From positions 832,001-896,000 of the forward strand of contig CAWDSK010000003.1 of assembly GCA_963804995.1 (NCBI GenBank): a DNA stretch of 64,000 bases, given 5' to 3'. Source of the stretch: an uncultured Acidobacteriota bacterium. GTDB taxonomy: Bacteria; Acidobacteriota; Terriglobia; UBA7540. Shown here piece by piece: positions 46,072-63,528 of the stretch. Under the pieces are notes generated by a model that was not told the origin of the DNA, searched no databases, and worked only from the letters and a program-made list of their open reading frames with translations. How positions within the stretch are numbered: the first letter of the stretch is position 1; each line of letters starts with the position of its first letter. Made by a program: the position numbers and the translations under genes.

Positions 46072-46101
46072 GGGGTTTCGATCTCCAAGACTCCTGGCAA
46101 T

Positions 46102-46313
46102 CTAGTGTGGTGTCCCGGTTAATATTTGACAAGGCTGTCCGACCCCCTCACCCCCCAGCCCCTCTGTCGCCGCGGCGACCGAGGGGGGAGTTAATTTTCT
46201 TACCCTCGCCCCTTTGGGGGAGAGGGTGGACCGCCGCCGGCGTTTTCATCAGCCGGGGCGGGACGGGTGAGGGGGTCGCGAATAATCAACGAATTTCTGA
46301 CTCAGGACACTAG
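46102..46313. mobile_element. Related CTAG-bounded MITE with hybrid ends
   Basis: Right end CGAATTTCTGACTCAGGACACTAG matches the 44577 TIR; left end CTAGTGTGGTGTCCCGGTTAATATTTGAC matches 62778; core inverted relative to 44577. Confidence 0.82.
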
Positions 46314-46352
46314 TTTCTGAGTGACGATGCAACGTGCGGAGTTGCAAGCACC

Positions 46353-55949: not shown

Positions 55950-56342
55950 ATGAGTACTCAAGCGCAGCTTTTAAGAAAGGCCCGCGACTTCCTGTCTAAG
56001 GTTACGTTAAAAAAGGCCCCAGAGTATCAGGTGTTCTGCCCACTGGAATTGAGGAAATCATTTAAGCAAAAGCGCGCCGAATGGCCTAAATGGTCGGAAC
56101 TTCCTGGTGTTTACTATGTATTAGGAAAAGATGGATCGGTACTCTCCATTGGCGTAGGAACGGCCTGGTACGGAATAGTATGGAAGGTTGAGCAGACTAT
56201 CAAGCGCGAACACCTCCCAGAGAAAACGAGAGCGGGGGGAATACTGTTCGATAAGTCAGACTTGTCTTGGGCATTTTCATTGGAGAAGTTCCTGAAACAC
56301 GCCATTAAGCCACCACTCAATATTCAAAGAGGACCAAAGTAG
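55950..56342 (+). CDS. Hypothetical protein, degenerate GIY-YIG-like
   Basis: PGVYYVLGKDGSVLSIG ... LEKFL ... PPLN pattern. Confidence 0.5.
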   Translation: MSTQAQLLRKARDFLSKVTLKKAPEYQVFCPLELRKSFKQKRAEWPKWSELPGVYYVLGKDGSVLSIGVGTAWYGIVWKVEQTIKREHLPEKTRAGGILFDKSDLSWAFSLEKFLKHAIKPPLNIQRGPK

Positions 56343-57152: not shown

Positions 57153-58907
<1,755 letters not shown>

Positions 58908-59364
58908 TTAACCCGTAGCAGCGCATGGGTTGCTCCCCGCTTATGCGGGAATACTCGTTCACGCTGCACCATCGCCAAGGTGTGGAAACCTGCGCCGCTG
59001 GAGCAGGCGCACCGTGACGAAAAAAGAATCGATCGGAAAGAAACGGGCGACGCAGCCGCGACACACCGCTCGAATACAGCACCGTTGTCGGAATGGCCAG
59101 TCAAGCTATGCCTGCTTCGGGCAGTGTCCTAAATGTGTGTTGATTTCTCGTGGCGGCCTCGGAAGGTAGTATCGCCACCGCCTCATTCGGAAGAAGTTCA
59201 GCCGAGCTACAAATATTCGGACAGAACATGCCACCCTTTAAGGGAAAATATCAAGGGGGTAGGGCCGTTAGTTATACAAGGCATAATTGATCGTTTCAGG
59301 TGGGAAACTTGCGAGGCTTTGTTGGCGGGACGGCTCCCCCCTTATATCACTAACTTCCTATATT

Positions 59365-59433
59365 TGGTCGGGGCGCGCCGATTCTGACGGCGGACCTCTT
59401 GGCCCAAGGCAAGCACGCTACCTAGCTGCGGCT
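59365..59433 (-). pseudogene. Degenerate tRNA-Pro(TGG) lacking the 5' acceptor strand
   Basis: Minus strand ...CGCAGCTAGGTAGCG T GCTTG CCTTGGGC CAAGA GGTC CGCCG TCAGAAT CGGCG CGCCCCG ACCA; Pro-type 3' end, altered T-loop. Confidence 0.7.
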
Positions 59434-59465
59434 GCGAGAAGATGGGAAAGGGGCGGTCGAAACTT

Positions 59466-59562
59466 TGGTGTGCCCGGAAGGATTCGAACCCTCGACCAAG
59501 GGATTTCCTGGGCCGCCCCTCTCCAGATTCGGTCCCGTGCTTTCCCACTGAGCTACGGGCAC
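59466..59562 (-). tRNA. tRNA-like gene (97 nt) with a 29-nt anticodon loop; isotype undetermined
   Basis: GTGCCCG TA GCTC AGTGGGA AAGC A CGGGA [CCGAATCTGGAGAGGGGCGGCCCAGGAAA] TCCCT TGGTC GAGGG TTCGAAT CCTTC CGGGCAC A CCA. Confidence 0.7.
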
Positions 59563-59667
59563 ACTTTGTTTTGAGATGCTAAAACCCAGCAAGAGGTTGC
59601 ACTCAGCATTGCCATGCTCAATCTCTAAAAGCGTTTGGCCTTCATTCCTCCCGCGCCCCCCTGCCCA

Positions 59668-59943
59668 TCAAGTCAGTCCTCGGCACCGAGCCGTCCTGAG
59701 TGGGAGGATTGCCAGGACGGAAGTGGGATGACACGCCCACCAAGCAAGAAAGCCAAGCAATGCCACCCAGCCCAGGAATTGCAGCCATGGCATAATGCGG
59801 GGGACCCAGTCAGGCGTTCTGTGCTTCCATGCCCAATGATCCTCCCTCGCGATCTGGTACTTGATCTGGTATCTAGCGGCAAGGTAAGCCCTTGTTCCCC
59901 ACGAAAGCAGACACACGCTAAGACACCCCGCTTCTCCAACCAT
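59668..59943 (-). CDS. Small membrane hypothetical protein
   Basis: GAGGTGG RBS; hydrophobic C-terminal segment; no family recognised. Confidence 0.35.
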   Translation of the reverse strand: MVGEAGCLSVCLLSWGTRAYLAARYQIKYQIAREDHWAWKHRTPDWVPRIMPWLQFLGWVALLGFLAWWACHPTSVLAILPLRTARCRGLT

Positions 59944-60014
59944 CTTCCACCTCGGAGGTTGCGAGGTTCGCGGACAAGAAATTATGCCCGACCCCTCCCT
60001 GGCGATCCCGACTT

Positions 60015-60353
60015 CTACGCAGCTTTCCTGGTCTCGTGGCTTTCTGCGCCTGAAATTATTGTGGGGGCGAGTGCCTTTGCCATTGCCTTCGCGGTCGCGA
60101 CTGCAACGAACGCTCCCACAAAGGCACCCAGCAAGGCCGGAATCAAGTATATGTCGGCGATTTTGACTCGCTCAAACCAGTGACCGATGATGGGTGAACC
60201 CAGCCAGGCTCCCACCCAGCCGGCGATCACCTTAACAAGAAAGCCATCGAAACTCTCCAGGACCCGATAGCGAACCAGGTAATGGATCACGAAGGCTGCA
60301 ATCACGCCTGCCACCAACAAAACCAAGAATGCCCGGAAATTCATTCCGATCAT
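60015..60353 (-). CDS. GlsB/YeaQ/YmgE-family membrane protein
   Basis: GAGGAGG RBS; KVIAGWVGAWLGSPIIGHW, LIPALLGA. Confidence 0.8.
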   Translation of the reverse strand: MIGMNFRAFLVLLVAGVIAAFVIHYLVRYRVLESFDGFLVKVIAGWVGAWLGSPIIGHWFERVKIADIYLIPALLGAFVGAFVAVATAKAMAKALAPTIISGAESHETRKAA

Positions 60354-60507
60354 GTTTCCGCCTCCTCAACTAACCACTCTTGGGACCTCGGTCCTTCACA
60401 CAAAGGAACATCAAGAAATGAGTCCCACCGCTGAATCACGAACACCGAGCAGCTACTATCATCCGCACTGAAAACTGAACCACCCGTTATCGCGTAGCTC
60501 CGCTCAT

Positions 60508-60936
60508 TCAGGCCGCAATGCTCTGAACCCGCGGATGGTTTTCTAAAACTCGGCCTATTTCCAAAACCGTCAACGGCTCGACCAAATAATCCACAGCCCC
60601 CAACTGCATTGCCTCCAGGTAGCAGCCCATGTCAAGGCACCGCGCCACGACCAAGACGGGCAAGCTGCGGTTGGTCTCTGTCGCGCGCTTCAGCACACAG
60701 CTCCCTTCGAAGTTGGGAGTCCCCTGACTCACCATAACGAAGTCGAAGACTTCGTCCGCCAGGCAGCGGACAGCCTCCTGATAAGAGTTGCACGCCCGGA
60801 CCCGATACCCATACCCTTCGAACATGTTGAAATAATATTGAAGATCTCCGGGGTCTTCGTGCACTAGGAGCGCTTTTGCTCTCGGAACACGGAGAGGTTG
60901 TGTGCTCTCTTTTTGGTTCGTGCCTCTCGGCCGCAT
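60508..60936 (-). CDS. Atypical stand-alone receiver-domain protein
   Basis: AGGAGGT RBS; REC fold pattern ALLVHED...FDFVMVSQGTP...EAMQLGAVDYLVEP. Confidence 0.8.
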   Translation of the reverse strand: MRPRGTNQKESTQPLRVPRAKALLVHEDPGDLQYYFNMFEGYGYRVRACNSYQEAVRCLADEVFDFVMVSQGTPNFEGSCVLKRATETNRSLPVLVVARCLDMGCYLEAMQLGAVDYLVEPLTVLEIGRVLENHPRVQSIAA

Positions 60937-61659
60937 AAGTCACCTCCTAAGTGTCGGCCATCCGTGTTCTACCCTCGGCGGAAGAAACTCATCTTGCGGG
61001 CCGTTCCCTGGGCTTTCGCCCCTGTTGCCAATGACACAGCCTTTGCGCACACAAGGCGATCAATCGGCGCGCTCACCGGGAGTTATTTGTTGCCTCGTTA
61101 AATCGTCTGCACGCAGGAAATTTCGCCAACCGCAGGGGCGGGCGCCGTTCTATCAACAACTCGGCGACGCAGGCACACACAGGGATAGTGAGGTCTGGCG
61201 TGAGGATGTCGTCTGTCGGAGGAAGTCAGCGTCACTGACTACTGGAAGGTCGCCCTTCCCTGGATCGACGAAGATCAGCAATGGCACAAAGCGGAACGTA
61301 TAGCTCATTGAAGACCTCCGTATATGCAACAGCTTACTCCCAAAAAGTTCCAAGTCAAGCCGAATAACCTCGCGCACTCTGCGGCTCTTAATATGATAAA
61401 CATACACTGTATTATTAACACACGGCTTTGCCGCCTGGCAGTACAGGGAAGAGGGAACGGAAGGACAGGGAACAGGTGGAAAGTGACGACAGGTTAGTCG
61501 AGAGGGGGCTTGCTCAAGAACTGCCCCCATGCATCGGGACAAAAGAACGTAGTGCGGCGCGGCGGAGCCGCAAGGGAATTGTAGCGCCGACCTCCGCTTG
61601 GTGAGGTCCGCGGCTTTCAGCCTCAGGCCCTCGCGTTCTCATCGGCTGGCCATCGCACC

Positions 61660-62777: not shown

Positions 62778-63016
62778 CTAGTGCGGTGTCCCGGTTAATA
62801 TTTGACGAGGCTGTCCGACCCCCTCACCCCCCAGCCCCTCTGTCGCCGCGGCGACCGAGGGGAGAGTTAATTTTCTTGCCCTCGGTCGCCGCGGCGACAG
62901 AGGGGCTGGCCGAGGCGTTTTCATCAGCCGGGGCGGGACGGGCCTACGCCCACCGAAGGGGTACCTGGAGACGTAAACGTCATAAGCTTCGGCCCGCAGG
63001 CGGGTGAGGGGGTCGC
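62778..63016. mobile_element. Third member of the CTAG MITE family with an internal insertion; right end lost
   Basis: Left about 100 bp nearly identical to 46102; extra GCCTACGCC...CTTCGGCCCGCAGGC inside GGCGGGACGGGTGAGGGGGTC. Confidence 0.75.
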
Positions 63017-63528
63017 CCATGAAGCAATCGACGAGCAGCCAGCGAAGCACGATCCAACCACAACCAAACGATCAAACCGTTCTTATTGTCGTAATGCAAC
63101 AATTGACACAAAATCCTTGCTAAAGAAACAAGAAATTACCGTAATGCAAGGCAGAGTGTGCGCGTTCCAAATTCTGCGGCTTCAATAGGGTGAGCGTTGG
63201 CGTGAAAACCAGGGGTGGGAAATCTGCAGATCCGGCCCTGCGAAGGACGAGGAGTTGGGGCTCTGCCTCGCGTGATTTCTAACTCTACTTATGTGGACCC
63301 ACGACTTTTTGTCAATGCAGAATTGTCCCACTTGTTGCCCTCCGCGGGGCATAGCGGGCGAGGTCCCACATACTTTCCCAAACTCATGCGTTTTTGTCAT
63401 GTTACTTTCCATATGCGGCTCCGTCGCGTTAAGCTATCCCCTACCCTCCGCGACTTCGCTTATCCCCCAAGCTGCGGAACGCATCGGCCAAATGCCGGCG
63501 CGCAATCTTGGATCACCAAGGAGCGGAA

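Follow-up and report, generated by a model that had tools for sequence, protein, structure and literature searches.

The window, that is, the whole stretch of 64,000 nucleotides analysed here, carries on its minus strand a tRNA-Ala-like gene of 97 nt running from 59562 to 59466 (Rfam tRNA, 48.3 bits, E 2e-8). An earlier reading of the letters alone, referred to below as the sequence-only reading, had described a near-canonical cloverleaf with a 29-nt anticodon loop containing 22 extra nucleotides. This description was confirmed, with the loop exactly as it had been quoted and the gene placed on the minus strand. The encoded CCA occupies 59466-59468, A73 lies at 59469, and the 3' strand of the acceptor stem at 59470..59476 has a C at position 70 (59472), giving G3-C70. 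The expanded loop at 59504..59532 is closed by the stem 59533-59537 / 59499-59503. The 7-bp acceptor stem, A73, CCA, U8, A14, G15, G18G19, the 5-nt variable loop, C48 and the TTCGAAT T-loop listed by that reading were all seen, as were C33 and the mismatches at 13-22 and 27-43 to which it had drawn attention. Judged as a decoding tRNA, the gene has the consensus D-arm, T-arm and acceptor stem together with CCA; the place of a 7-nt loop with U33 is taken by 29 nt with C33.

ARAGORN did not call the gene with default settings, and called it only in the mode with introns allowed, a check that had been proposed from the letters. An Rfam scan of 5 kb gave no match besides tRNA below E 0.07. The gene is a single copy in the 7.55-Mb genome (92% complete), whose best-scoring ordinary tRNA is tRNA-Ala(CGC) and which has its own separate tmRNA. 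The stability of the folded 97-mer is unremarkable (z -0.91 against shuffles), and therefore the case made here rests on homologs, not on folding energy. A weak -10-like hexamer (4/6 matches) is located at 59576..59581 on the minus strand, 13 nt upstream of G1. It is absent from the output of the consensus promoter scan, and the transcript of the window copy would start near 59569.

The surroundings have a defence-island context. A gene for an N6/N4 DNA methylase fused to an Mrr-like nuclease domain is located at 57153..58904 (minus strand), and a lone 24-nt IS-like end at 59119..59142 (plus strand) lies 310 nt downstream of the tRNA-like gene, with no partner in the window at 6 or fewer mismatches. 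Repeated DNA was also observed in the window. The stretch 59631-61375 has a 91% identical second copy at C1:15242-16991; the similarity ends 68 nt before the tRNA-like gene, and the copy on C1 has no such gene. Short dispersed MITE-like repeats with dozens of 75-95% identical genome copies are found at about 46090-46315 and at 62780-63440. Additionally, an ORF of 130 aa at 55950-56342 (plus strand), GIY-YIG-like by eye, has a 78% identical copy on C4 and gave no match in Pfam, PADLOC or NCBIfam.

Members and distribution of the family

The homolog search suggested by the sequence-only reading yielded ten distinct homologs with an expanded loop. Together with the window copy they form a family of 11 distinct sequences (window, L260, L287, L302, L295, L292, L335, L327, L339, L340 and L343), identical homolog sequences being counted once. 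All five homologs with a named host belong to Acidobacteriota, and the host of the window is accordingly probably a member of this phylum too. A search pattern for tRNAs whose anticodon arm is long returned one homolog from 133 family genomes and two further ones from 401 class genomes. A scan of 185,579 species genomes, in which the insert motif was not demanded, returned 57 loci, 35 archaeal and 22 bacterial, the search patterns demanding a CACCA end. Six of the 22 bacterial loci are titled Terriglobia, Acidobacteriaceae or Bryobacterales, and five of these six have a helix of 9-12 bp between the anticodon loop and the 3' trailer, referred to as the loop:trailer helix. The 16 other bacterial loci are mostly assembly duplications or tRNAs with long variable arms. 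Five new members came from a metagenome scan that gave 41 loci (36 distinct).

The element was found in none of 28 same-genus genomes, and in 401 phylum genomes it was seen nowhere outside the class. One known member and two non-members came from a second family sample of 231 genomes, and a direct DNA search of 60 relatives returned ordinary tRNA 3' ends only. Viral contigs searched with four patterns (118, 36, 30 and 3 loci) contained no clear member, and no match was found in PLSDB plasmids with one homolog as query or in GenBank phages with the window copy as query. The model R1, which gives the window copy 98.3 bits and was built partly from it, found no new member among the 150 matches listed of 2,145 in 133 genomes; eight genomes of this search enter the counts as no-match denominators only. 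Since ordinary tRNAs also receive high R1 scores, diverged members may have been masked.

One borderline relative, L258, was kept out of the 11. Its tRNA-like gene at L258:1494-1588 has alanine identity, a self-folding loop of 26 nt and no trailer helix, and it is accompanied by a terminator of the family type, an IS-like end upstream and a convergent dCTP-deaminase-like gene. Other unusual tRNA genes were observed as well. Viral contigs L021-L138 and L217-L246 contain many phage tRNA-like genes with expanded anticodon arms, among them a recurring 113-115-nt type (L054, L090, L107, L111 and L135) and Tyr genes with 12-32-nt inserts (L033, L036 and L052). Archaeal intron-bearing tRNA-Trp genes of Acidilobaceae and relatives (L248, L255, L266, L267, L277, L280, L282, L286, L294, L296, L297 and others) have a common GGCTCC motif about 10-20 nt past CCA, which can pair with the 3' end of the loop in those genes. 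Eight 'Tyr with intron' calls of ARAGORN were rejected as copies of one repeat and not tRNAs.

Cloverleaf and loop:trailer helix

Across the 11 members, 98.3% of the 231 cloverleaf cells are paired, a level reached by 0 of 500 shuffles, in an alignment that had been fitted to the structure beforehand. Two-sided changes occur at 11 of the 21 cloverleaf pairs, all five pairs of the anticodon stem among them. Judged from these aligned members, the cloverleaf is under selection in the family. The 7/5 acceptor/T architecture and the 5-nt variable loop are present in all 11 members, and G51-C63 of the T-stem in nine. Each of the ten homologs has G3-U70 (pair 3-70 over the 11 members: GU 10, GC 1) and A73, and A73-CCA is common to all members. 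The window copy retains A73 and has G3-C70 in place of G3-U70, beside a U2-A71 pair that is itself a two-sided change relative to the homologs.

The anticodon loop measures 25-32 nt in 11/11 members. It begins with a 5' part of 7-14 nt, mostly pyrimidine-rich, which is followed by the helix strand and then by a purine-rich 3' part of 6-10 nt. The CTGG/CCAG hairpin within the loop, emphasized in the sequence-only reading, is not what the family conserves: members do not share the internal hairpin, and the insert of the window copy pairs with the trailer over 12 bp. When the gene is folded with its flanks, the loop strand at 59513..59524 pairs with the trailer strand at 59445..59456 (both on the minus strand, with one G-U at 59521), 12 nt of the loop insert thus being joined to a 3' trailer located 9 nt past CCA. 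The intervening linker lies at 59457-59465 (minus strand) and is AU-rich and 8-13 nt long in all 11 members. By chance, at least 12 bp are reached by 73 of 20,000 random genomic 30-mers (0.4%) and by 348 of 20,000 shuffled trailers (1.7%). The 12-bp helix of the window copy by itself is uncommon and not decisive.

A helix of 9-12 bp with compensatory changes is present in 11/11 members, the window copy and all ten homologs, members having been selected partly by its presence and the metagenome pattern having demanded YGGY in the loop. Among controls, at least 9 bp were found in one of 35 archaeal intron tRNAs and in one of 16 other bacterial matches. The mean helix is 10.2 bp with the own trailer versus 7.5 bp with the trailers of other members, a difference attained in 0 of 200,000 permutations; in 3 of 11 rows no other trailer pairs as well as the own one, and in 9 of 11 none pairs better. 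With the helix register set sequence by sequence, 75 of the 77 cells of the seven core pairs are paired, and GC/AT swaps are present. G-U pairs occur on the RNA strand in 7/11 helices, and the opposite strand pairs better in 1/11. In terms of energy, the nested fold reaches -47.8 kcal/mol, to be compared with the sum of -22.5 (cloverleaf) and -24.6 (helix), loop penalties not yet counted. Both a cloverleaf with a pseudoknot and a nested fold, in which the acceptor stem is open, are compatible with these energies, so that the trailer is able to serve as a lock.

Beyond the trailer strand, seven of ten homologs have a strong hairpin, which is absent from the window copy. On the other side of the gene, a -10-like hexamer with at least 5/6 matches is found 6-14 nt upstream in six of the nine homologs with upstream sequence. 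A TTGACA-box motif (GGA-N-TAT-N-TTTGACAAAC) was also observed upstream of L260, L292, L295, L327 and L335. It is longer than a plain -35 element and possibly represents a regulator site; it was not found in the window at 3 or fewer mismatches.

Neighbouring genes and transcripts

Around the members, 92 ORFs are present, of which 36 were scanned against Pfam. A convergent PIN, PIN_10 or DUF4411 gene was found within 1.5 kb of seven of the ten homologs. The Pfam scan identified a PIN gene at L260, L302, L295, L335 and L340, a PIN_10 gene with DUF433 at L343, and at L327 a DUF4411 gene, presumably PIN-like; the calls for L260, L335 and L343 (3/7) score under the Pfam curated cut-off. The same seven homologs carry the terminator hairpin, which is common to the RNA and the convergent PIN-type gene. 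The PIN frames of L260, L295 and L302 extend to within 6-10 nt of CCA and overlap the terminator and the trailer. As a control, a convergent PIN gene was found at 0 of 53 ordinary tRNA loci (143 convergent ORFs; L009, which has no ARAGORN call, and L367 left out); these loci are partly orthologous, many being tRNA-Ala(CGC) loci with one common neighbour, so that 0/53 overstates their independence. In the genome of the window, which has 59 PIN matches, a PIN gene lies near 1 of 46 tRNAs, on the same strand. Thirteen other loci with homologs of two of the PIN proteins all lack the RNA. The PIN neighbours belong to several unrelated PIN families and are already provided with protein partners. PADLOC and NCBIfam gave nothing above cut-off for them, a PDB sequence search with one PIN gave no match, and a five-PIN alignment was uninformative.

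A different gene beside a PIN module was observed in a class relative. The region 1501-1612 of L200 contains a 112-nt tRNA-like gene with an expanded anticodon loop, without alanine identity or a trailer helix, which likewise converges on a DUF433/PIN_10 pair. The association of unusual tRNAs with PIN modules may extend beyond the family described here.

Four of the 11 members, L287 and the window copy among them, have neither a PIN neighbour nor the terminator; for the window copy, the nearest PF01850 gene is 118 kb off. L287 is located inside an element of about 330 bp that ends in 24-bp inverted repeats and is bordered by an 8-bp direct repeat, and the inverted repeat that flanks it has the sequence of the lone 24-nt end in the window. 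The flanks of L287 and the lone end may stem from an IS256-family MITE, which would have terminal inverted repeats, an 8-9-bp target duplication and a matching transposase; the ends of the one IS256 in the genome are only loosely similar. The absence of terminator and PIN gene from four members, together with the IS-like ends at L287 and in the window, suggests that these are displaced copies. With C70 for U70 and without terminator hairpin or PIN neighbour, the window copy may be a weakened allele, and it is regarded as a divergent, possibly weakened family member.

In the soil metatranscriptome X7, one contig of 348 nt (depth 8) covers 59229-59569 with the insert intact and no joint; it comes from one study, is unstranded and possibly DNA, and contigs drop short or rare forms. 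With 17 other letters and 1 gap relative to the window, it derives from a close relative of a different strain. The 3 in-gene changes listed all restore or strengthen pairs: a U at position 70 gives G3-U70, a C at position 63 gives G51-C63, and an A converts the G-U of the helix into A-U. The contig ends at 59569, 7 nt upstream of G1, at the start that the weak -10 box would predict, and X7 has no coverage of 59570-59900. As support for a transcript start, this end is a weak hint from one study. No joints were seen in 4 runs, in which the loop is covered by the one contig. Runs X1, X2 and X11 gave ordinary tRNA 3' ends or other stretches, not the element, and their small word shares are no evidence of habitat. 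The sequence-only reading had staked its proposal on expanded-loop homologs and a transcript; the former number ten, and the latter is represented by this one unspliced contig.

Splicing, related systems and possible functions

From the letters, three explanations had been put forward: a short intron needing an endonuclease and RtcB, a non-decoding tRNA mimic, and a decayed gene. The intron was not borne out. The absence of a canonical bulge-helix-bulge (BHB), already remarked upon, was verified, as no BHB-like cut pair restores a 7-nt loop in the window copy. A BHB-type cut pair was found in 1 of 12 sequences of the family and borderline relative, in relaxed form only, versus 11 of 35 archaeal controls, a figure which indicates that the sensitivity of this test is low. 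Of the two enzymes sought in the 92% complete genome, EndA (PF01974) gave no match, with matches in 4 archaeal controls, and RtcB was found in 2 copies, one within a tRNA array; RtcB was also matched in 6/10 bacterial control genomes, so its presence is not diagnostic. None of the splice positions tested yields an anticodon common to the family, and the contig of the relative is unspliced. With regard to group I introns, whose ribozyme core has a few hundred nt, the insert has 22 nt and the Rfam scan returned no intron family. Eubacteria are described as having no protein-spliced tRNA introns, their tRNA introns being group I only, in the part of PMC4090602 consulted. The family resembles the archaeal and eukaryotic short tRNA introns treated there in the size of the insert (18-25 nt) and its anticodon-loop position, and trailer pairing is also used by split and permuted tRNAs (same part of PMC4090602). 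Unlike BHB introns, it has no restoring BHB in the window copy, no EndA, and anticodons that mismatch the acceptor identity.

Compared to bacterial tRNA-Ala (RF00005), the cloverleaf, G3-U70, A73, CCA and G-rich D-loop are shared. Unlike that tRNA, the family has a loop of 25-32 nt and a conserved trailer helix, the NGC anticodon is not conserved, and the distribution is accessory. Among other RNAs, the tRNA-like domain of tmRNA is an alanine-charged mimic without an anticodon, pseudoknot I of the dicistrovirus IRES pairs an anticodon-like loop with downstream RNA, and the type III RNA antitoxin is a pseudoknotted RNA beside a nuclease toxin. The family differs from these and from bacterial Y RNAs in its full D-arm; neither a tag frame nor repeats nor a Ro60 neighbour were seen. 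The constant toxin linkage of a type III-like system is not observed, as 0/13 PIN-homolog loci carry the RNA and 4/11 members are without a PIN neighbour.

The closest known case is that of the acidobacterial allo-tRNAs and polycistronic irregular tRNAs of Mukai et al. (PMC5389517), which share the phylum and the soil setting. According to the part of that study consulted, some have G3-U70, they often lie near toxin-antitoxin genes, and some are charged yet kept out of translation. They have 8/4 or 9/3 acceptor branches, long V-arms, E-loops or long D-loops (same part of PMC5389517), whereas the family consists of 7/5 tRNAs in which the variable loop is short, the anticodon loop is expanded and a trailer helix is present. 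The structural features of allo-tRNAs, 8/4 or 9/3 branches and a long V-arm, are replaced by 7/5 in 11/11 members, and the position near toxin-antitoxin genes is seen for 7/10 homologs and not for the window copy. In the portion of the PMC5389517 supplement covered, only 2 rows contain GTAGCTCAG, both being D-loop expansions and non-members. The trailer is not mentioned in the excerpts of a review of non-canonical tRNAs (PMC7609411), and full-text literature searches, with subscription papers outside their scope, did not return a description of the architecture. The family is real and conserved, and apparently an undescribed variant of non-canonical tRNA. A tRNA-Ala body with a trailer-locked anticodon loop is an architecture missed by default ARAGORN and not found in Rfam, and the family offers a small and testable way into the question of why unusual tRNAs are retained next to toxin-antitoxin genes in Acidobacteria.

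Comparison of the members establishes, at the level of sequence, a cloverleaf kept by compensatory change, an alanine identity and a trailer-paired loop of 25-32 nt, as well as, in most members, a promoter-like site and a terminator hairpin common with a convergent PIN-type RNase gene. The best reading is that of a small accessory family of tRNA-Ala-derived, probably non-decoding RNAs of Terriglobia, and it is very probable that these RNAs are functional tRNA-Ala mimics, either non-decoding or latent. The mimic proposed from the letters is thus the option that gained support, from the covarying stems, the conserved alanine identity and the PIN adjacency of most members. The precursor would adopt a tRNA fold in which loop and trailer form a pseudoknot; the CCA end would be freed by RNase P together with cleavage of the AU-rich linker, and AlaRS would charge the mimic with alanine. 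The trailer strand would stay on the loop or be released, constituting a lock, and the RNA would be incapable of codon reading. The conserved alanine identity implies a free CCA end, so that the trailer would have to be cut away, and the conserved helix implies that the trailer would matter before or after the linker cut. The RNA body would bind a nuclease, and the paired loop would resist or gate cleavage. The window copy would be a displaced allele, perhaps partly active, with terminator, PIN neighbour and U70 lost.

As the mechanism of such a mimic, a role as a charged, non-decoding and stable tRNA-shaped bait for, or modulator of, the tRNA-cutting PIN/VapC nucleases of defence islands is tentatively preferred over the alternatives below, and may well prove wrong. 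According to part of PMC8421152, VapC toxins cleave the anticodon loops of tRNAs, and a sponge role has been proposed for extra tRNAs. However, alanine identity is unnecessary for a decoy, and the PIN link runs one way, the 13 other PIN-homolog loci being without the RNA. If true, a decoy would represent a new control route for anticodon nucleases.

A latent missense tRNA, the bolder alternative, is unlikely. It would derive from an ancestral tRNA-Ala(GGC) with an insert between U33 and G34, masked by the trailer. Under stress, a PIN nuclease would excise the insert and RtcB would seal the ends, and the product, alanine-charged with a non-alanine anticodon, would arrest the cell by mistranslation as an abortive defence. 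The loop ends are tRNA-like (YU at 32-33 in 9/11, A37 in 11/11, G at the 34-equivalent in 10/11), L260 still reads GGC, which would point to an old insertion at 33/34 of tRNA-Ala(GGC), and a 33/34 cut would give Ser, Ala, Pro, Thr, Tyr, Leu or Ile anticodons on an alanine body. Two RtcB genes and the PIN neighbours are available, and acidobacterial allo-tRNAs have been proposed as missense suppressors near toxin-antitoxin systems in part of PMC5389517. On the other hand, there is no BHB-type or other common cut signal and no EndA, C33 is found in the window copy and in the X7 relative (no change being listed there), the unspliced form alone was seen in contigs that drop rare or short forms, and the G and A at the 3' end of the loop may be structural in a region that is purine-rich throughout. 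A bacterial tRNA 'pro-toxin' of this kind, an alanine-accepting tRNA with a trailer-masked, short non-group-I intron at 33/34, PIN excision and RtcB sealing that deliver a missense tRNA on demand, is decidedly unlikely; if true, it would be a new mistranslation-based defence switch. Splicing, if true, would overturn the rule that bacteria have no protein-spliced tRNA introns and suggest a job for bacterial RtcB.

It is also unlikely that the family represents a one-transcript RNA toxin-antitoxin or addiction unit, in which the charged mimic would be harmful with a free loop, through AlaRS or EF-Tu titration or an A-site jam, with its own trailer as labile antidote and the PIN genes as fellow cargo. 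Patchy presence (2/133 family genomes, 3/401 class genomes), the copy within an IS-like element, the stand-alone promoter-terminator unit of many members and the existence of PIN homologs without the RNA are consistent with this. However, toxicity of the mimic is only hypothetical, the strictly convergent layout with a common terminator in 7/10 homologs suggests co-location beyond chance, and three PIN ORFs end within the trailer region.

AlaRS reads G3-U70 (part of PMC5389517), and G3-U70 and A73 in 10/10 homologs, with the anticodon free, would suit an alanine donor for non-ribosomal alanylation of lipid, cell wall or peptide, barred from translation by its blocked loop. This role is very unlikely, as no aminoacyl-transferase gene was found in the 36 of 92 neighbouring ORFs scanned, the T-stem is tRNA-like (G51-C63) with no visible weakening for EF-Tu, and the PIN link is left unexplained. 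A tRNA gene in decay or a scar left by integration, the trailer match being the remnant of a DNA inverted repeat, is highly improbable and largely refuted for the family: the G3-C70, C33, two stem mismatches, missing terminator and nearby lone IS-like end of the window copy, and absence of the element from all 28 same-genus genomes, would agree with it, but ten homologs have compensatory changes in all variable stems and the loop:trailer helix, G-U pairs favour the RNA strand, the changes of the X7 relative all improve pairing, and U2-A71 of the window is a two-sided change. Decay, as raised from the letters, is thus rejected for the family and possibly applies to the window copy as a weakened allele.

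Several other candidates were rejected. A tRNA-Ile2 ortholog was considered, the 3' 40 nt being 87.5% identical to the tRNA(CAU) of a relative and the assembly of the window having no intact Ile2, and it was discarded because no splice gives CAU, the downstream flanks of the tRNA(CAU) loci have no counterpart here and the homologs are of the alanine type. For an att-site remnant, no second copy of either half was found in the genome and no PF00589 integrase within about 200 kb on the contig. A cis-regulatory leader was dismissed, as the downstream genes vary between members.

Outside the window, on the minus strand, two tRNA-Ile2(CAU) 5' halves ending at the anticodon loop were observed at G000 C1:70212-70251 and C1:141696-141735, and after each of them comes about 1.3 kb of island DNA at 87% identity. 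Although ATA codons are used, neither an intact Ile2 gene nor a 3' half of it is present in the assembly. These half copies possibly reflect elements whose integration site is the anticodon loop, the restored gene then lying in a gap. Tandem integrated islands on G000 C6 are marked by repeated 3' parts of tRNA-Phe, tRNA-Val and tRNA-fMet (C6:815616, 843324, 886849; C6:1993112, 1993429; C6:371861). Additionally, a 26-tRNA array at G000 C5:1304904-1309125 encloses an RtcB gene and resembles the stress-induced L-arrays described in part of PMC8421152.
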